Source: Bacteroidota bacterium (GTDB taxonomy: Bacteria; Bacteroidota; Bacteroidia; Flavobacteriales_D; JABDKJ01). From it: 60,999 bases of DNA. The stretch is taken from NCBI GenBank assembly GCA_039028335.1, contig JBCCIF010000005.1, positions 1-60,999 on the forward strand. Direction: 5' to 3'. The notes beneath the pieces were generated by a model, which saw only the letters and a list, made by a program, of their open reading frames with translations, did no database searches and was not told the DNA's origin. A program made the position numbers and the translations under genes. Below, piece after piece: positions 2,879 through 49,001 of the stretch; position 1 is the stretch's first letter; every line of letters begins with the position of its first letter.

Positions 2879-4236
2879 TTAATTTTTTCGCGATATAGGA
2901 ATTTTTTCTGGCTGCTTTCAAAGGGCCGATAGATATAATAAGCATATCCATCTCTTATCCGAATTCTTTCAGCATACTTATAATGGAGTTTCTTATTCCC
3001 ACTTACTTCCGCATTCTTTGAATCAATTTTCTTCAAATAGGTAAAACCGTTTCTCGAATAACTGGTCCAAAAAGTTTGTTGAATATCGTCTAAATAAACC
3101 TCTCCATCCCAAGCATTATTCGGCATCCATTTTTCATCGTAGCGCTTGCGTTTATGATAATTGAACTCAATGCTATCAATAGCATTATTCCATTTAGAAT
3201 ACTTCATTAAGCGATCGCTATGATGATCAAAAATTAAAACCGTATCGTTCATGACAAAAAGTGGGGCATTCGGTGTCTCGAAATAAGCCTGTTTATCAAA
3301 GCCTCTCATGTATGCCCCAATAATCTTGCGATCAATTCCTGTTCTGATTGACATATTCGTTGCATCTACCCTATCCCTATTACTTAGATACTTGAATTCA
3401 GATCGCATTAACTCCATTCCAAATTTGTCGCTTATATAGCGTAAAAGGGTATAGGTACTATCTCGGCTATCCAGTGTATAATATTCAAAAGCAGGATATG
3501 AAGGATTGAAATTTGAGAGATAGGTAACGTCCCCAATGGAATCAATTTTAGGCTCCATGAGCTCCGAATAAACGCTCTTCTTTATTTGAATCGTATCGAT
3601 TCGCGCTGAATCCATTTTGAAAAGAATCACATGTTTGTCAGATGACAATATTGGATACTTGCCGTATTTATTTTTGAATTCAAATTGGCCTGAATTTAAT
3701 GGAATGCTATCGCGTATGCGGTTCTCAAAATCCGTACTATAGACCACTACATTCTCGTATATTTCATTCTCGTATTGATCTGCTGACCTTAGGCTTTTTT
3801 CCCTTTGATATGCCAAAACGCATAATCCGCTTTCTGTAAAATCAAAATCACAAACATGCCTTAACTCGTTTGAAAAGACTAACTCGGGCAAGGGATCTGG
3901 AAGAATTTCAGGTCCTTCAAGGATTTTAGAATCGAGGTCCAATTGAAAAAGTTGATTCTGTTGTTCCAAACCCTCATCCAGTGAATTTATCAAACGCTCA
4001 TAGGTCTTATAGGCTACATGCGTTAGTCGAAGTCGCAGAGGAAACTCAATATTCTTCAAAGTAAAAAATCCCTCTTTATTACTCGAGACTCCTCTTTTCG
4101 AATTGAGTTCTATGATATTCACGCCCGCAATCGCTTGACCGGTCTCTTTATCCACAATTCTACCACTGAAGGATTGAGATTTAGCCCAAAAAGGTAATAT
4201 CAAAATCAAGCCGAAGAATATACTTTTGCTTAGCAT
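2872..4236 (-). CDS. Carboxypeptidase-regulatory-like domain secreted protein
   Basis: Signal peptide followed by SGRIVDKETGQAIAGVNI...SNKEGFF...THVAY. Confidence 0.75.
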   Translation of the reverse strand: MLSKSIFFGLILILPFWAKSQSFSGRIVDKETGQAIAGVNIIELNSKRGVSSNKEGFFTLKNIEFPLRLRLTHVAYKTYERLINSLDEGLEQQNQLFQLDLDSKILEGPEILPDPLPELVFSNELRHVCDFDFTESGLCVLAYQREKSLRSADQYENEIYENVVVYSTDFENRIRDSIPLNSGQFEFKNKYGKYPILSSDKHVILFKMDSARIDTIQIKKSVYSELMEPKIDSIGDVTYLSNFNPSYPAFEYYTLDSRDSTYTLLRYISDKFGMELMRSEFKYLSNRDRVDATNMSIRTGIDRKIIGAYMRGFDKQAYFETPNAPLFVMNDTVLIFDHHSDRLMKYSKWNNAIDSIEFNYHKRKRYDEKWMPNNAWDGEVYLDDIQQTFWTSYSRNGFTYLKKIDSKNAEVSGNKKLHYKYAERIRIRDGYAYYIYRPFESSQKKFLYREKINY

Positions 4237-29423: not shown

Positions 29424-29595
29424 GCGATTGCGCGAATAGCGCAAAATTTATTGAAGAATTAAGAATGATGATATTAGATTTCAGAAGTATTATTTTTGCT
29501 CGGGTGAAATTTCTCTATGGAATGAGCGAAGCTCGAGCATGCGCAGGTCATGAGTTTGAAGCTTTGCTCGCCAGGATGTAGGTTTAAGGATTATC

Positions 29596-29655
29596 ATTTT
29601 GATTTTGATTCAAATTTTGATTTTGATTTGATAGACATTTTAATTTTGATTGAAT
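29596..29655 (+). repeat. (TTTTGA)n degenerate hexamer tract directly upstream of the hemH start
   Basis: cattttgattttgattcaaattttgattttgatttgatagacattttaattttgattgaata followed by GTG. Confidence 0.8.
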
Positions 29656-29656
29656 A

Positions 29657-30682
29657 GTGGATTACAAAAAAAGAGGCGTTTTATTAGTCAATTTGGGATC
29701 GCCAGAAAGTCCTTCTACTAAAGATGTACGCGTGTATCTCAGAGAATTTTTGATGGACGAAAGGGTAATCGATGTCCCCTATCTTTTGCGAAAGTTTTTG
29801 ATTGAATGCATTATTCTTCCCACACGACCAAAAAAATCTGCCGAAGCGTATCGTTCCATTTGGTGGGACGAAGGATCACCCTTAATAGTGCTGAGCGAAA
29901 GGCTCAAAGCAAGACTGCAACCTAAAGTACAATCTGATATCGAATTGGGCATGCGTTATGGAAAAATGTCGATAGAATCGGGTATTGATAAACTGGTTAA
30001 ACGCAATCCTGGAATTGAGACGATTCATTTGGTGCCGCTCTACCCTCATTACGCCATGTCCAGCTATGAGACTGTGGTTGTGAAAGCGGAAGAAATTATG
30101 GCAGAGAAATATCCTGAACTTCGTTTAGAGACTTTGGCTCCTTTCTACAAAGATGAGAGCTATATTTCTGCGCTGTCAAAAAGTATTGAGAAGCATTTGG
30201 AAGCAGACTACGATCACATACTTTTCTCTTATCATGGTATACCCGAACGCCATGTAAAGAAATCGGATGTCACAGGTGAACATTGCTTAAAATGTGAGAA
30301 TTGTTGTGAAGTGAAAAGCGAAGCACATGCAAATTGCTATCGCCATCAGGTTTTTGAAACCACTAAAGCTGTTGCCAAGCAACTTCATCTCGATCCAGAC
30401 AAATTTTCGGTTAGCTTTCAATCTCGACTTGGAAAAGACCCTTGGCTTCGCCCATTTACAGATAAAGAAATCATCCGATTTGCCGAGGAAGGCAAAAAGA
30501 AATTGGTAATCGTGTGTCCGGCTTTCGTTTCAGATTGCCTGGAAACCATTGAAGAAATTGGTATGGAAGCAAAACATGAATTTTTGGAAGCAGGAGGCGA
30601 GCAATTTACTTTGGTGCCCTGCCTCAATACCGATGAACAATGGGTAGACACCTTGGCCAATTGGTGTAACCAAGCGAAGTAA
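29657..30682 (+). CDS. hemH: Ferrochelatase
   Basis: LLVNLGSP, GSPL, GMRYG, PLYPHY, FSYHGIP, FQSRLG, FVSDCLETIEEI. Confidence 0.97.
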   Translation: MDYKKRGVLLVNLGSPESPSTKDVRVYLREFLMDERVIDVPYLLRKFLIECIILPTRPKKSAEAYRSIWWDEGSPLIVLSERLKARLQPKVQSDIELGMRYGKMSIESGIDKLVKRNPGIETIHLVPLYPHYAMSSYETVVVKAEEIMAEKYPELRLETLAPFYKDESYISALSKSIEKHLEADYDHILFSYHGIPERHVKKSDVTGEHCLKCENCCEVKSEAHANCYRHQVFETTKAVAKQLHLDPDKFSVSFQSRLGKDPWLRPFTDKEIIRFAEEGKKKLVIVCPAFVSDCLETIEEIGMEAKHEFLEAGGEQFTLVPCLNTDEQWVDTLANWCNQAK

Positions 30683-30686
30683 AAAC

Positions 30687-30811
30687 GACAGCTGAAAGCT
30701 GAATCAAAATGGCAATCAAAATGACAGTTGAAAGCTGAATCAAAATATCAATCAAAATGAAAATCAAAATGGATAGAGAAGTATTAATAATTGTCTGTTT
30801 TGATTTTGATT
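30687..30811 (+). repeat. 36-bp tandem duplication plus AATCAAAAT/TTTTGATT hairpin in the hemH-hemG spacer
   Basis: 30687-30722 and 30723-30758 are 33/36 identical; aatcaaaatggatag (30762-30776) pairs with ttgtctgttttgatt (30791-30805) using G-U pairs. Confidence 0.85.
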
Positions 30812-30819
30812 ACTAAGTA

Positions 30820-42922: not shown

Positions 42923-44094
42923 TGTTCGATGTGTTGTTCAGTATAAAATTTCTTATTTGCTTTTGCCATAGTGCGCAGCAATCCACAGCATCTATAGCGC
43001 TCTTCATGATAATGTCCATAAAGATCATCTAATCGCTCAACTACTTCGGCTATTCCGATCTCATCTGCCCAAGCCAATAATCCTTTGGGATAATTCACTC
43101 CTTTCGTCATGGCCGTATCGATATCGTCTCTAGACGCGATTCCAAATTGCAATGCATTGGCCGCTTCATCAATCAAGAGGGCCACAATTCTATCCACAAT
43201 TATTTGACCTAAGACGGTATCTTTTTCAGCTTCTGACGTCTCCCCTTCATCGGAATAGTCATAATAGCCGCGCCCCGTTTTTCTTCCATGGTATCCGGCT
43301 TCGCTCAGCCTTTTTTGCGTAAACGAAGGTTTATATCTAGGGTCGTAGTAAAAGGCCGCGAAAACCGTTTCAGTGACCGTATAATTGACATCATTACCAA
43401 TGAAGTCCATCAGTTCAAATGGCCCCATACGGAATCCACCCAGTTCTTTCATCGCCCAATCAATTGTTGCAAAATCGGCTAGGCCTTCTTCGTAAACCCT
43501 CAAGGCCTCGCTATAGAATGGACGCGCTACTTTGTTTACGATGAAGCCCGGAGTATCCTTAGCAATCACCGTCAATTTTTTCCAAGAATCAATAATCGAA
43601 CGTGCCTTCTCTTTGGTTTCTTCCGAAGTCTGGATGGCCGGAATGATCTCCACCAATTTCATCAATGGAACGGGATTGAAAAAGTGAATACCGATGAAAC
43701 GCTCTGGCTTTTCGCAAGCTGCAGCCAATGAAGCAATGGAAAGTGAAGACGTATTTGAAGCAATAATACATTCTTCCGAAACGATGGATTCCAATTCTTG
43801 AAAAACTGATTTTTTAATGTTCAAATCCTCGATAATGGCTTCAATAACCAATCCACAATCTTTCATTTCTTGAAGAGATTGCACGTAAGAGATATTCCCT
43901 TGAATTTTCTCTTTGTCTGTTTCAGAAATGCGTTCTTTCTCAATCAAGCGATTAAGTACTTTATCCAATTTGGCCGCGCTTTTTTCTAAAGCTGAGGCAT
44001 TGGTATCATACACTAAAACTGGATGACCAAAAGTAGCTGCTACTTGTGCAATGCCACTTCCCATTGTTCCAGATCCAATTACTCCTACTTTCAT
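42919..44094 (-). CDS. paaH: 3-hydroxyacyl-CoA dehydrogenase
   Basis: GSGTMGSGIA, EAIIE, SNTSSL, HFFNP, PGFIVN, MGPF; ATG 44094. Confidence 0.9.
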   Translation of the reverse strand: MKVGVIGSGTMGSGIAQVAATFGHPVLVYDTNASALEKSAAKLDKVLNRLIEKERISETDKEKIQGNISYVQSLQEMKDCGLVIEAIIEDLNIKKSVFQELESIVSEECIIASNTSSLSIASLAAACEKPERFIGIHFFNPVPLMKLVEIIPAIQTSEETKEKARSIIDSWKKLTVIAKDTPGFIVNKVARPFYSEALRVYEEGLADFATIDWAMKELGGFRMGPFELMDFIGNDVNYTVTETVFAAFYYDPRYKPSFTQKRLSEAGYHGRKTGRGYYDYSDEGETSEAEKDTVLGQIIVDRIVALLIDEAANALQFGIASRDDIDTAMTKGVNYPKGLLAWADEIGIAEVVERLDDLYGHYHEERYRCCGLLRTMAKANKKFYTEQHIEQ

Positions 44095-44098
44095 ATTC

Positions 44099-44131
44099 AA
44101 TCAAAATCAAAATGAGAATCAAAATTAAAAT
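44099..44131. repeat. Left arm of a 33-bp inverted repeat flanking the OmpA-like gene
   Basis: aatcaaaatcaaaatgagaatcaaaattaaaat; 32/33 reverse complement of 44976-45008. Confidence 0.9.
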
Positions 44132-44219
44132 CAAAAAGTAATTTGACCCTAAGTTGTAAGTGTTGAGTGCTAAATGTTAAGCGAGTATTCAATTTATTTT
44201 TTTTATGCTGAATTCTTAT

Positions 44220-44942
44220 TTATTCATCCCAAGATAAAACCGAAATTTCAGTCCGTTGATTTTTCCTTTTTGCCTCAGATTGTAAATCATCAGGCAATTC
44301 TTCGACTTCTTTTCTAGACCAAACTGGATGTGTATGACCAAAAATGAAAACCTTGAATTTTTCCGGATGTTTATACTCTTTGAAAATATATTCCAGCACC
44401 ACTTCAGTTCTTTCTTTGGATATTCTTTGCGCTTCATTAAATCCAGAGTGCCCTCCTATTGACCAAGTTATCGATGGATTATCTTCGAATACCTGAATCA
44501 ACGTGTCCAAAGTCTTTCTCGTAAGAAAATTTAGTTCGCTTGAATTAAAATCAAATAATACTTCAGAAAGAAATGGAGGATGTGAAACTAAACATTCGGA
44601 CAAAATGAATTCAATTACATAAATTCTGGATTCCGATGCTATTTCTACTTCAATCTCTTCAACTGCCTTCAAGTAATCTTTTCCTACAGCCTCAATTCTA
44701 TATTTTTTCCCTTTTTCAAGAGTGGTTTGTATGGATGAATTCAAGCTGTCTTCAAAAACTATACGCTGATCTTCTAGGTTTATTACGGTTATTTTGAAAC
44801 CCTTTAATTCATTACCCGACTTACTAATAACTTTTGATTCCAATTGGAAAAACTGCGAATCATTTTCTTGACCCAGAATTCGGTCTGCATGGATTATAGA
44901 AAATACTAGAATTAAGAGAATATGTAATATACTGTTTTTCAT
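44220..44942 (-). CDS. OmpA-family protein inserted in the paa operon
   Basis: Signal peptide; VLFDFNSSEL...LDTLIQVFEDNP...IGGHS...SKERTEVV...NQRTEI. Confidence 0.8.
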   Translation of the reverse strand: MKNSILHILLILVFSIIHADRILGQENDSQFFQLESKVISKSGNELKGFKITVINLEDQRIVFEDSLNSSIQTTLEKGKKYRIEAVGKDYLKAVEEIEVEIASESRIYVIEFILSECLVSHPPFLSEVLFDFNSSELNFLTRKTLDTLIQVFEDNPSITWSIGGHSGFNEAQRISKERTEVVLEYIFKEYKHPEKFKVFIFGHTHPVWSRKEVEELPDDLQSEAKRKNQRTEISVLSWDE

Positions 44943-44975
44943 TCCTCAAATTTGAGCTCTCGACTACAATCTAAT

Positions 44976-45008
44976 ATTTTGATTTTGATTCTCATTTTGA
45001 TTTTGATT
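44976..45008. repeat. Right arm of the 33-bp inverted repeat, overlapping the paaD stop
   Basis: attttgattttgattctcattttgattttgatt. Confidence 0.9.
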
Positions 45009-45495
45009 ATTTCAGACATTTAAAATAATCAAAAGGCTCTAAACAATCCTTGCATTGAAAAAGCGCTTTGCATGCAGTCGACCCAAACTGGCTGACTAAT
45101 TTTGTATTTTTCGAACCACACAAAGTGCATTTTACGTGATGCGAATCTCCCAACAAAGCCTGTTTATCCGCACTTTCTTCGAGAGGAGCTGCGATTCCAT
45201 ATTCTTCTAAAGCTTTGCGACCTCTTTCAGTAATCCAATCAGTCGTCCAAGCAGGTGCCAATACCAATTCCACTTCCGACTCGAATTGATGTTCGGCCAG
45301 TATTCTTTCAATGTCATCACCAATAACATCCATAGCAGGACAGCCAGAATATGTGGGTGTGATCTTTACTTTTACTTTTTTGCTCTCAACTTGAACATCT
45401 CTGACTACACCCATATCCATAATAGACAGTACTGGAATCTCAGGGTCATGCACTTGAGCCAATAGCGTTTTGATATGATCTACACTCACTACCAT
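45007..45495 (-). CDS. paaD: Phenylacetyl-CoA epoxidase subunit PaaD
   Basis: DPEIPVLSI, TPTYSGCPAM, PAWTTDWI, CxxC...SQFGSTACKAL...EPFDYFKC; ATG 45495 overlaps the paaC stop. Confidence 0.95.
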   Translation of the reverse strand: MVVSVDHIKTLLAQVHDPEIPVLSIMDMGVVRDVQVESKKVKVKITPTYSGCPAMDVIGDDIERILAEHQFESEVELVLAPAWTTDWITERGRKALEEYGIAAPLEESADKQALLGDSHHVKCTLCGSKNTKLVSQFGSTACKALFQCKDCLEPFDYFKCLK

Positions 45496-46241
45496 TCCAT
45501 ATTGGGATAGGCTCTTTGCATGTATTGCAATTCGGAAAGAATGTATCCCATATTCTCTGAATGCATACCTTTTTTGCCATTGCACCTTCTCCATTTTTTT
45601 TCTGGAATTTCGAGTGTTGCTTCTTTCAATAAACCATCCACTCTTTCGAAATAGGGTTTCTCAATGGTCTTGATATCTCCACCAATTCCTTCTTCACGCA
45701 TATTCTTTTCCAATTCGCTTTCATCAAACAATTCACCTACAAATGGATATAAATGATTGATTGCGTCCTGCATTTTTGAATGGCTTATTTCGGTTCCGTC
45801 TCCGAGCCTTTTCACCCATTCTGAAGAGAAACGCTCATGATAACTGACTTCTTTTATTGCCTTATTGGCAATAGCTGAAATCGTTTCATCTTTGCTATTT
45901 AACAGCTGCTTAACCAATGCCAATTGATAAACATCGAATAAAAACTGTCTTGCAATAACATGCGCAAAATCAGTATTGGGCTGTTCCAACAGAAGGACAT
46001 TGGTGTATTGCCTTTCATTTCTCAAAAATGCAATGTCATCTTCCGTCTTTCCATCATCCGCTAACTTGGCAGCGTATTGAAAGTAATTCCTTACTTGTCC
46101 ATAACAGTCCAAGGAAATATTCGTCAATGCAATGTCCGTTTCTAAATTGGGTCCATGCCCGCATAATTCAGACAAACGATGTCCAAGGATCAGTGAGTTA
46201 TCTCCCAACAGCAAAATATAATCGTAAAGTTTGCTCATCAA
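45489..46241 (-). CDS. paaC: Phenylacetyl-CoA epoxidase subunit PaaC
   Basis: GDNSLILGHRLSELCGHGP, EQPNTDFA, KEVSYH, RLGDGT, QRAYP. Confidence 0.96.
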   Translation of the reverse strand: MMSKLYDYILLLGDNSLILGHRLSELCGHGPNLETDIALTNISLDCYGQVRNYFQYAAKLADDGKTEDDIAFLRNERQYTNVLLLEQPNTDFAHVIARQFLFDVYQLALVKQLLNSKDETISAIANKAIKEVSYHERFSSEWVKRLGDGTEISHSKMQDAINHLYPFVGELFDESELEKNMREEGIGGDIKTIEKPYFERVDGLLKEATLEIPEKKWRRCNGKKGMHSENMGYILSELQYMQRAYPNMEW

Positions 46242-46522
46242 ATGTGTTTTAACTCTTCAGGTAAATCATAAAACGTTGGGTGGCGATATACTTTGTCTTT
46301 CGCAGGTTCAAACATTTCTCCGTTGTCCGCTGGATTGGAAGCATGAATGTTTCTTGACTCAATTACCCATAGGCTGACGCCTTCCATTCTTCTGGTATAG
46401 ACATCTCGTGCATTTTCCATTGCCATTTCAGCATCTGCGGCATGTAAGCTTCCCACATGTCTGTGTTCCAAACCGTTTTTAGACCTTACAAAGATCTCCC
46501 AGATTGGCCATTCTTTTTTCAT
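46238..46522 (-). CDS. paaB: Phenylacetyl-CoA epoxidase subunit PaaB
   Basis: WPIWEIFVR, HVGSLHA, ARDVYTRR, KVYRHPTFY. Confidence 0.96.
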   Translation of the reverse strand: MKKEWPIWEIFVRSKNGLEHRHVGSLHAADAEMAMENARDVYTRRMEGVSLWVIESRNIHASNPADNGEMFEPAKDKVYRHPTFYDLPEELKHI

Positions 46523-46548
46523 AGTGATAATGTTATATGGTTATAGAG

Positions 46549-46926
46549 CTACAAAGACTTCGACTTCTGCTTTTTTAAATAACTGATATAACCGTTCATA
46601 ATTCTTTCTATTTTATCGATTTGCACCTTCATCAGTTCAAATGTATTCTCTGTTATCAACTCACAATCCAGCGCATCCGTTAAGTGATTCAATGTTTCTG
46701 TGAGAGATCCTCGAGCCATTCTAGTAAATTGAATGTTTTCTTGAAAATGGTAACGGCCATGGCCCTCAGCTAGGTTTGCACAGATGGATCTTGTGCTCCG
46801 TATCATTTGGTCAACCATCCTGAATTTCTCTTCATTCGGGAATTTTTTGGTCAGGTCATAGATTTCCTTGCGAAGTTTTCGTGACTCTTTCCATACTTCC
46901 AATTCTGTGAATTTTAGATACGCCAT
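46549..46926 (-). CDS. Four helix bundle protein (23S rRNA intervening-sequence protein family)
   Basis: ELEVWKES, FPNEEKFRMVDQMIRSTRSICANLAEG, ARGSLTE; lies between paaA and paaB. Confidence 0.93.
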   Translation of the reverse strand: MAYLKFTELEVWKESRKLRKEIYDLTKKFPNEEKFRMVDQMIRSTRSICANLAEGHGRYHFQENIQFTRMARGSLTETLNHLTDALDCELITENTFELMKVQIDKIERIMNGYISYLKKQKSKSL

Positions 46927-46968
46927 TCCATATAACCTTTTAACTCTATAACCTAGTATCCATGAGCA

Positions 46969-47922
46969 TTAAGCACTCTTTGCCATGTGCTCTTTCTTCA
47001 ATTCTTGCTTCTCGGCATAGGCCACCGCAGCATCTCTCACCCATGTCCCTTCTTCCCACGCTTTAACCCTCGCTCCCAATCGCTCCTTGTTGCATGGACC
47101 ATTTCCTTTGACTACTTCCCAAAACTCCTCCCAGTCAATTTCACCAAAATCATAATGCCCTCTTTCCTCATTCCATTTTAAATCAGGGTCGGGAACAGTT
47201 AAGCCTAAATATTCTGCTTGTGGAACAGTAATGTCAACAAATTGCTGTCGCAATTCATCGTTCGTCTTTCTTTTGATCTTCCATTTCATGGCCTGTTCTG
47301 TGTGCGGTGAATCCTCATCTCTTGGTCCAAACATCATAAGCGATGGCCACCAAAATCGATTCAATGCATCTTGGGCCATTTCTTTTTGCTCTGGCGTTCC
47401 TTGCGCCAGACCAATCATAATTTCATATCCCTGTCTTTGATGAAAAGACTCTTCTTTGCAAATCCTCACCATAGCTCTGGCATAGGGACCGAAAGAAGTT
47501 CTGGTCAACATAACTTGATTGATAATGGCTGCTCCATCGACCAACCAACCGATAGCTCCAATGTCGGCCCAAGAAAGCGTAGGGTAATTGAAAATCGAAG
47601 AATATTTCGCTTTTCCGGTATGAAGCTGATCAAACAATTCGTCCCGAGAAATCCCTAAAGTCTCCGCTGCAGAATACAAATAAAGACCATGTCCTGCTTC
47701 ATCTTGCACCTTGGCCAACAAGCCCACTTTTCTTCGAAGATTTGGTGCGCGAGTTATCCAGTTTCCTTCTGGTAGCATCCCCACAATCTCGGAATGTGCA
47801 TGTTGAGAAATCTGACGGATATGTGTTTTTCTATACTTTTCCGGCATCCAGTCTTTTGGCTCGATATTCTCGCCTTGATCAATACGCGATTGGAATAGTT
47901 CGTCTAAATTCACTTCTTTCAT
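46969..47922 (-). CDS. paaA: Phenylacetyl-CoA epoxidase subunit PaaA
   Basis: [43 protein letters not shown]. Confidence 0.97.
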
Positions 47923-47933
47923 AAAATCTTCAT

Positions 47934-49001
47934 TTAATTGTCAAAATCGACCACCACCTTATCTGAGCAAGGAATGGCCTGACACGTTAATACATAACCC
48001 GCTTCTACTTCCTCTTGTTCTAGGGCATAATTCAGTTCCATTTTCACTTCCCCTTCAATCACCTTGGCCTTGCATGTGCTGCATACACCGCCTTTACATG
48101 CAAAAGGGAGATCTGCCGAATTAGCCAAAGCTGCGTCAAGGATATTATTGGATCCTTGATGAATAACAAAATTAAAGGAGTTGGCTCCATCCAAAATCGT
48201 CACATCTGATTTCAAACCTACCATTTCATCTTTAATGATTCTTTCACCCTTTTTTCTTTCAGGTGAGCCGAATAATTCAAAATGAATATGCTTTGTATCA
48301 AAGTTCTTCAATTCTAAATAATCCTTCACCATAAATATCATTTCTTCTGGACCGCAAATGAAAATATCGTCCATGGTTTCGACCGGTGTCAAATCTCGGA
48401 AGATCACTTCCAACTTTTCTTGATCTAATCTACCATTGTATAATTCAACGCCTCTTTTCTGCTTTGTTAAAAAATGGAAGACCTCAAATCGCTCCATAAA
48501 TCGATTCTTGAGCGCTTCAATCTCCTCCTTAAGAATTATTGAACCAACTGTTTGATTGATGTAGAAAAGATTAAATGTTGCATTCGGCTCTGCTTCTAGA
48601 TGTGTCTTGATAATAGAAAAAATAGGTGTGATACCGCTACCAGCAGCTATTGCCACATAATTTCTCTTAGATTTTGGATCGCATTCAACAAAGAAATTCC
48701 CATTGGGAGCCATGACATCAAGTTCATCTCCTATTTGAAGTTTTTCATTTGCAAAAGTACTGAACTTGCCTCCCGGGACTTTTTTAATACCCACGCTCCA
48801 TTGACTGTCATGTGGACTCGTGCACAAAGAATAGGAACGTTGAACACTTTCACCATTTATTTCTGCCCTTAATGTTAAATATTGCCCTTGTTTAAAGGCA
48901 AATTCATCAGCTAAACCATTGACTTCAAAAGAAATGATACTGCAATCATTTGTTGTCTTCTCAATATTCGAAATTTTTAAGGTATGAAATCTTGAGCCCA
49001 T
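47934..49001 (-). CDS. paaE: Phenylacetyl-CoA epoxidase reductase PaaE
   Basis: [19 protein letters not shown], 2Fe-2[10 protein letters not shown]...LTCQ. Confidence 0.93.

Follow-up and report, generated by a model that had tools for sequence, protein, structure and literature searches.

A four-helix-bundle gene between paaA and paaB as a probable, weak member of a large class of stem-bracketed PF05635 cassettes

The window analysed in this study is a stretch of 60,999 nucleotides from a Bacteroidota bacterium (contig JBCCIF010000005.1 of assembly GCA_039028335.1), and it carries a phenylacetate-degradation (paa) operon in which paaA and paaB are separated by a four-helix-bundle (4HB) gene of the PF05635 family. 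With moderate confidence, we explain this gene as one of a very large class of stem-bracketed PF05635 gene cassettes, a weak and probably old representative that was inserted independently at the paaA|paaB junction. The cassette consists of an intact PF05635 gene enclosed by two mutually complementary arms of short repeat units, the design of the intervening sequences (IVS) of 23S rRNA that bear an open reading frame (ORF). It would have entered paaA|paaB in the sense orientation, and the cassettes found in relatives at different paa junctions would be separate arrivals.

The 4HB gene (46549-46926, minus strand) is intact and encodes 125 aa. It lies in a paaA-paaB spacer of 446 nt (46523-46968, minus strand), the corresponding spacers in relatives ranging from a TGATG overlap up to 112 nt. 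The host gene upstream is paaA (46969-47922, minus strand; PF05138, E 2e-100) and the host gene downstream is paaB (46238-46522, minus strand; PF06243, E 1.5e-42), which confirms what a sequence-only reading of the window had stated about this arrangement. The protein matched PF05635 ("23S rRNA intervening sequence protein") with 117.4 bits (cut-off 33.8, E 4e-34), from position 2 to the last position of the 106-position profile, and TIGR02436 ("four helix bundle protein") with 108.8 bits (cut-off 24, E 1.6e-31), and the earlier assignment to the S23p/IVS-protein family was thereby borne out. The motif GxxRxxxSxxxNxxE is given as conserved in PF05635 (PMC3936711); RSTRSICANLAE in the 125-aa translation fits RxxxSxxxNxxE, and the leading G is absent. 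In an alignment of 10 family members, Q40, S47, N51 and E77 were invariant and E54 was almost so. The sole solved relative found by sequence was 2GSC (Xanthomonas XCC0516, E 1.6e-10), a match from which a pentameric ring would be predicted here. No rRNA match was found in 44000-48000, so that the gene stands outside any 23S rRNA gene, in whose helix 25 or 45 the ORF-bearing IVS are located. A comparison with known RNA families returned only a chance sub-threshold snoRNA match, and defence-system profiles (PADLOC) gave no match.

We compared the paaA|paaB junction among members of the same bacterial family and found paaB in all 8 genomes examined and a junction without a gene in 7 of 7 relatives. 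Stop and start codons overlap (TGATG) in G004 and G005, and the spacer measures 11-12 nt in G007 and G006, 40 nt in G001, about 89 nt in G003 and 112 nt in G002. The sequence-only reading had taken the gene for an insert, had proposed a look at close relatives and had named vertical conservation at this site as evidence to the contrary; the cassette was present at paaA|paaB in 0 of the 7 relatives, and no such conservation was seen in them. On this comparison, the 4HB gene at paaA|paaB is an insertion. The same-genus relative G002, whose PaaB is 96% identical, carries a 4HB cassette at paaE|paaA instead, with 19-nt arms matching at 17 of 19 positions, and G005 has a broken 4HB copy at paaE|paaA with in-frame TGA and TAG. 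The 4HB protein of G002 is 53-55% identical to that of the window, and the best match to the window's protein among 401 genomes of the order reached 58%, which argues for independent acquisitions and not for a local hop. A metagenome scan with the 125-aa protein gave a closest match of 51% identity. Further 4HB cassettes occupy paaH|paaZ in G001, G003 and G004, a junction that overlaps in the window's genome. Four junctions of the paa operon are thus occupied within one bacterial family (paaA|paaB, paaE|paaA, paaH|paaZ, and paaD|paaH with an OmpA-like insert), indicating that gain and loss are frequent.

Two empty spacers of the operon were looked at as possible remnants. The 112-nt paaA-paaB spacer of G002 was rejected as a gene-less remnant hairpin, its fold being no better than that of shuffles (z -0.5). 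The paaE|paaA spacer of G001:C68 (434-500, about 66 nt) holds short TGACT/AGTCA inverted motifs and may be a cassette remnant.

PF05635 genes are carried by 46 of the 61 genomes sampled in the order, often in several copies, and the window's genome has five. Each of the other four copies in this genome has inverted short repeats at its ends with a unit of its own, the units being ATCAAAAT/ATTTTGAT, (GGTCTTG)x8 against CAAGACG x2, and TTCAAT/ATTGAA. A lack of inverted flanks in the paralogs, to which the sequence-only reading had pointed as counter-evidence, was therefore not observed. For a census of the family we assembled 115 loci, namely 28 (all matches within the bacterial family), 27 new ones from the 61 genomes of the order, and the next 60 matches listed; three matches less than 450 nt from a contig start and the remaining ones (about 70 listed and 16 unlisted) stayed outside the sample. 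Four of the 115 loci were dropped for too-short flanks, which left 111. At each locus, the 162 nt around the start were aligned with the reverse complement of the 215 nt around the stop under a flat mismatch penalty, and the scores were compared with the 95th and 99th percentiles of 3000 mismatched flank pairs. The results showed that inverted flanks reached the 95th percentile in 96 of the 111 loci and the 99th in 63; a direct-orientation control on the same flanks gave 22/111 and 12/111, respectively. The 99th percentile was reached by 59 of 101 intact genes and by 4 of 10 broken ones. A metagenome replication set of 53 loci was reduced to 40 by the removal of 13 with short flanks or broken ORFs, and to 33 by the removal of 7 duplicate proteins; 27 of these 33 lay above the 95th percentile. 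Among the 61 intact loci with strong arms, the arms had a median length of 30 nt (range 14-53), and the median distance was 24 nt from the upstream arm to the ATG and 17 nt from the stop to the downstream arm. These findings demonstrate that complementary arms are a family-wide rule for PF05635 cassettes.

Direct repeats were also seen beside some of these genes. The paaH|paaZ cassette of G001:C68 has a second, identical and directly oriented copy of its 46-nt downstream arm on the upstream side of the 4HB gene, at a distance of 58-104 nt, and direct arrays stand on both sides of the gene at several further loci (G058:C30, G041:C37).

Around the copy in the window, the upstream arm (46941-46953, minus strand; GGTTATAGAGTTA on the coding strand, TAACTCTATAACC on the forward strand) lies 15-27 nt before the ATG, and the downstream arm (46539-46551, minus strand; TAGCTCTATAACC on the coding strand, GGTTATAGAGCTA on the forward strand) includes the TAG stop of the 4HB gene. 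In this main register 12 of the 13 positions of the arms are complementary, the exception being a G.U pair on the coding (minus) strand. An alternative register is formed by a second GGTTATA-type unit, GTTATATGG on the coding strand (46928-46936, minus strand), which ends 1 nt before the ATG, and its partner CCATATAAC on the coding strand (46532-46540, minus strand), which overlaps the main downstream arm by 2 nt; on the forward strand, GTTATATGG (46532-46540) is fully complementary to CCATATAAC (46928-46936) over 9 bp. All four strings quoted in the sequence-only reading were present where it had placed them, and both its 13-bp pairing with a single G-U and its 9-bp alternative were recovered. 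Because the CC of the downstream arm is common to both registers and the two are not nested, they are alternatives and do not add up to a single long stem. On the coding strand, the spacer before the start reads GGTTATAGAG-TTAAAA-GGTTATATGG-A-ATG and the stop region reads TAG-CTCTATAACC-ATATAAC. Two GGTTATA units stand upstream, 16 nt apart, and two TATAAC units downstream, 8 nt apart; Tandem Repeats Finder reported no array of at least 4 copies. Shuffling of the gene's own short flanks showed the pairing to exceed chance, with a repeat score this high in 20 of 5000 trials and a duplex as strong as the observed one (-21.6 kcal/mol) in 11 of 2000. RNA folding of 46515-46975 (minus strand) placed a 12-bp closing helix in both the minimum-free-energy and the centroid structures. 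Over the whole of the flanks (162 x 215 nt), RNAduplex did not set this copy apart (-61.5 kcal/mol vs a median of -60.8). Taken alone, the repeat around this copy is real but modest.

We then assessed the placement of the cassettes relative to their neighbours. Co-orientation was seen with the gene upstream in 88 of 103 loci, with the gene downstream in 88 of 107, and with both in 78 of 101; the background in the window's genome, from crude ORF calls, was 70% of adjacent pairs on the same strand and 51% for both neighbours. The cassettes were thus shown to prefer sitting co-oriented inside gene strings. In 46200-47100, a scan with sigma-70 rules, which fit Bacteroidota poorly, returned no minus-strand terminator-like site and no promoter-like excess. 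Co-oriented placement and this null scan fit a promoter-less gene that would ride host transcripts.

On the explanation that we favour, the 4HB gene, having no recognisable promoter or terminator of its own, would be transcribed with the operon, and in the transcript the arms could close a 12-bp helix beside its start and stop codons. By analogy with the rRNA copies, RNase III probably excises members with longer arms from the transcripts of their hosts; an RNase III gene (rnc) is present in the window's genome. Such cleavage would make the insertion tolerable and would free the cassette's mRNA. For the copy at paaA|paaB, cleavage seems possible and rather unlikely, because its helix is short. 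What keeps the arms complementary would be a DNA-level process, such as inverted duplication or arm conversion, and not selection acting on individual base pairs of the RNA.

Arms of the same kind were found around other genes and around no gene at all. An OmpA-like ORF of the same operon (44220-44942, minus strand; PF00691, 27.5 bits, barely above the cut-off) stands between paaD and the 3-hydroxyacyl-CoA dehydrogenase gene and is enclosed by 33-nt arms of AATCAAAAT units (44099-44131 / 44976-45008) that are 97% complementary and resemble the arms of the 4HB cassettes at paaH|paaZ in G003 and G004. In G002 no gene occupies paaD|paaH, so that the OmpA-like gene is a second insert, and the shared architecture that the sequence-only reading had seen in both inserts is supported. 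The OmpA-like gene was also considered as a recurrent alternative cargo, an idea that gained no support: homologues in 88 of 201 genomes were at most 33% identical over the stretch that aligned and were mostly parts of open frames of about 700 codons. The corresponding paaD-paaH spacer of G002:C17 (140-430, about 290 nt) has no ORF and contains G+C-rich hairpin-like stretches.

A ferrochelatase-like ORF (29657-30682, plus strand) lies between a ATTTTGAT array (29590-29655) and an inverted AATCAAAAT array (30702-30770), the paired parts being 29590-29622 / 30738-30770. With a short TTTTGATTTTGATT run (30797-30812), the downstream array also forms a gene-less hairpin (30738-30812) directly before the next ORF. 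The short contig C164 (4405 nt) holds three PF05635 genes. One of its 4HB genes is enclosed by ATCAAAAT-type arrays, of which the left one also pairs with an array at C164:2273-2298; C164:2222-2305 is a gene-less ATCAAAAT hairpin, and dinB lies between ACTCAAG x4.4 (2026-2056) and GTCTTGG x8.3 (3590-3647), the latter being the array of the next 4HB cassette. Solitary arrays with the unit of an arm of a 4HB cassette on C164 were found at C30:31333-31422, (TTGGGTC)x12.9, and at C26:34389-34455, (ACCCAAG)x9.6, and neither of them has a 4HB gene in its vicinity or an inverted counterpart within 3 kb. Inverted repeats with a score of at least 40 and a separation of 60-2500 nt were sought throughout the genome. 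Apart from a palindrome at the window end and nine contig-end fold-backs, only ATCAAAAT-type array pairs emerged, those around the 4HB gene on C164, around the OmpA-like ORF and around the ferrochelatase-like ORF. The contig-end repeats (C111, C112, C177, C190, C21, C22, C31, C54 and C83) are near-perfect, non-repetitive, 46-110 nt long and within about 400 nt of the ends, and they look like fold-back assembly artefacts.

Several observations weigh against the explanation that we favour. The helix of this copy is only 12-13 bp, its flank-complementarity score of 23 barely passes the 95th percentile of 22 and ranks 83 of 111, 4.5% of the 3000 mismatched flank pairs (taken from other cassettes and larger windows) equal that score, and the RNA fold of the whole cassette (46515-46975) is not stabler than shuffles (z -0.28). 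At the level of the class, significant inverted flanks are missing from 15 of 111 loci, and 15 of 103 have a divergent upstream neighbour, so that neither arms nor read-through transcription are obligatory. The arms are also not exclusive to 4HB genes, since arrays that share their unit with the arms of another cassette of the genome stand alone or around other genes. Comparison of filled and empty junctions revealed no target-site duplication at paaA|paaB or paaE|paaA, and no linked recombinase was found, no search having been made for a transposase acting in trans; the word "mobile" therefore refers to presence and absence alone. At G002:C10, a 21-nt direct repeat precedes both ATGs, and the ortholog lacks this repeat. 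Finally, the mismatches in 109 stems comprised 112 G.U and 96 A.C pairs on the sense strand and 236 transversions, giving a G.U share of 0.54 (95% confidence interval 0.47-0.61), and the genome set alone gave 96 vs 81. A stem kept by selection on RNA could be expected to favour G.U, and the lack of a G.U excess speaks against such selection. The mRNA-level excision and the trans-acting role of the protein that the sequence-only reading had proposed gain no support from this count.

The last of these observations leads to the question of the level at which the arms act. Irregular units are mirrored in exact order in both arms, as with the GAGAAT interruption in the 33-nt OmpA-like arms, which is what an inverted copy would give. 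The cassettes at G000:C29 and G002:C10 occupy one site (neighbours 91.5% and 85% identical, 4HB 71%), and their arms are unlike each other while each pair is still self-complementary. Among pairs of proteins at least 70% identical, an arm score of at least 20 was reached in only 3 of 8. The results demonstrated that arm sequence changes faster than the 4HB protein and that complementarity is kept. Indels and shifts of register distinguish the arms of the three orthologous cassettes at paaH|paaZ, and these sequences are too few for counting covariation. Wobble, mirroring and turnover do not fit a stem maintained by RNA-level selection, and arm complementarity seems, from these sequence comparisons, to be renewed by a DNA-level process such as arm-to-arm conversion, inverted duplication or regeneration at insertion.

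The same observations suit an explanation in which the arms act at the DNA level only, as inverted duplications that arose by insertion or conversion, resembled terminal inverted repeats and then decayed, the cassette simply being co-transcribed and translated. Short arms would be expected of an old insertion, as this one would be with its closest relative at 58% identity, and the gene-less hairpins and solitary arrays are also in its favour. Against it, each cassette has an arm sequence of its own, so that no sequence-specific transposase could recognise all of them, and neither a linked recombinase gene nor a target-site duplication at the two paa junctions was found. Moreover, arms are still complementary in cassettes that have diverged to about 50% protein identity, and the same stems in rRNA are described as demonstrated RNase III substrates (PMC4990558). 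We regard an action at the DNA level alone as a real possibility, and on balance an unlikely one.

The repeat arrays could instead be candidate binding sites of a pentameric 4HB protein, which would use them for autoregulation and would act in trans on gene-less arrays and on those with other cargo that have its unit; this would be the trans-acting factor of the sequence-only reading. The nearest protein relatives (about 50% identity, from other families of the order and at unrelated loci) have GGTTAT(T/A)/ATAACC arms in the same polarity. Among pairs at 45-55% protein identity, 10% of 98 share arms in the same polarity, compared with 1% in the opposite polarity and 0.4-1.3% among unrelated proteins, which indicates that gene and arms travel together. 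The recurrence of the ATCAAAAT arrays of the C164 cassette at several other loci of the genome and the five-fold ring of the solved relative (Lin et al. 2006, cited in PMC4990558) would also suit binding. However, common descent of gene and arms would account for shared units just as well, and no arms are shared in 90% of the pairs at 45-55% identity or in 5 of the 8 pairs at 70% or more, the latter speaking against strictly sequence-specific recognition of the repeats. Nor is the GGTTAT unit of the paaA|paaB cassette dispersed in the genome, where 5 close pairs were found and 3.5 expected. The shared units lend weak support at best to recognition of the repeats by the protein, and we consider binding of this kind doubtful as the explanation of the arrays.

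That the gene is a normal accessory of the paa operon, inherited vertically and with AT-rich flanks that match by chance, could account for the short stem, for the 4.5% of mismatched pairs that reach its score and for the unremarkable whole fold, and it is contradicted by the absence of the gene at the junction in all seven relatives, by the rarity of the score in shuffles of the own flanks (20/5000) and by complementary flanks in 96 of 111 members, which makes it very improbable. A relation to Avd, the accessory protein of diversity-generating retroelements (DGRs), had also been suggested in the sequence-only reading; matches to Avd-type profiles do exist (bAvd, E 6e-4; Avd equivalog, 24 bits) and stay below the cut-offs (80 bits for the latter), the neighbours are paaA and paaB, and the three reverse-transcriptase matches in the genome lie on other short contigs (C177, C189 and C196), none beside any of the five 4HB genes, so that an actual DGR accessory protein is hardly credible here.

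The operon around the cassette lies on the minus strand. Its order is a PaaE-type reductase (47934-49001), paaA, the 125-aa ORF, paaB and paaC, followed by paaD, the OmpA-like ORF, the 3-hydroxyacyl-CoA dehydrogenase gene and a PaaZ-like gene.

To our knowledge, PF05635/TIGR02436 is among the largest bacterial protein families without a known function. A packaging rule that applies to copies within rRNA and elsewhere alike gives this family a testable hypothesis, that of a stem-bounded cassette processed from host transcripts. If true, such processing would explain why PF05635 genes occur in unrelated operons (capsule, cas and paa). The arms can enclose other cargo or nothing, and the paa operon with its four hit junctions offers natural filled and empty sites. 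The wobble test, which gave no sign of RNA-level selection, advises caution against taking the RNase III story for granted. A bolder proposal, speculative and in our judgement improbable, is that PF05635 cassettes are a ubiquitous class of promoter-less selfish genes living on rRNA and operon mRNA and excised through their own stems by the RNase III of the host, which would in effect make them "intervening elements" that code for a protein within the mRNAs of bacteria. Their pentameric protein would renew or move the arms and would serve gene-less and foreign-cargo hairpins, such as the OmpA-like one, in trans, much as autonomous elements serve non-autonomous ones.

Among known systems, miniature inverted-repeat transposable elements (MITEs), repetitive extragenic palindromic (REP) elements and the heptamer short tandemly repeated repetitive (STRR) sequences of cyanobacteria are short, dispersed, intergenic, and palindromic or tandem. 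The window's genome resembles them in having gene-less copies beside gene-bearing ones. They differ in that the arm sequence here is private to each cassette with no genome-wide consensus, that no transposase or REP-associated tyrosine transposase (RAYT) is linked, and that the arms enclose a specific gene family. As to insertion sequences and MITEs, the arms here differ between copies and no duplication was found, the transposase in trans not having been searched for. No paper was found that links STRR or heptanucleotide repeats to the PF05635 family.

The DGR protein Avd (BPP-1 Avd, PDB 4DWL) is likened to this family in a DGR survey (PMC10053308), which describes PF05635 as resembling Avd, with a homologous 4HB fold, pentamers and work with nucleic acid. 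The locus at paaA|paaB differs in that it lacks a reverse transcriptase as well as template and variable repeats, and its Avd profile score lies far below the cut-off. PF05635 genes wedged between operon genes have been reported before. A 2013 survey (Zhang and Ye, Nucleic Acids Research; PMC3936711) counted 18 of them inside cas loci, for example between cmr3 and cmr2; they are read there as possibly associated with CRISPR (clustered regularly interspaced short palindromic repeats), and the accessible part of that survey makes no mention of flanking repeats or insertion. A table of the Riemerella capsule locus likewise places such a gene between two capsule genes (PMC13688083). In the literature that could be accessed, no description was found of complementary arms around PF05635 copies outside rRNA, and subscription journals or supplements could hold one.

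The closest likeness is to the ORF-bearing IVS of 23S rRNA, known from helix 45 of Coxiella burnetii and from Leptospira, which carry an S23p ORF of the same protein family in the loop of a stem of terminal inverted repeats, with short tandem repeats before the start codon. The Coxiella IVS is described as having a 28-bp terminal stem that RNase III cuts in its middle, and tandem GACAGAT heptamers before the S23p ATG (PMC4990558). The same source describes such IVS as selfish, with a mobility mechanism left unexplained. The systems differ in that the host there is rRNA and here an mRNA operon, in that the stem is 28 bp there and 12-13 bp here, and in that RNase III excision has been shown there, whereas the element here is known from its sequence. 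The S23p ORF of Coxiella is decaying and is thought to be untranslated, whereas the ORF here is intact. Terminal complementary sequences closing a stem around an ORF are present at paaA|paaB as well, weakly so beside the 28 bp of Coxiella. The class is a variant of the known rRNA IVS, of which this copy is a weak example; new here are the cassettes at four paa junctions within one bacterial family, and the arms that also surround an OmpA-like gene and form gene-less hairpins.

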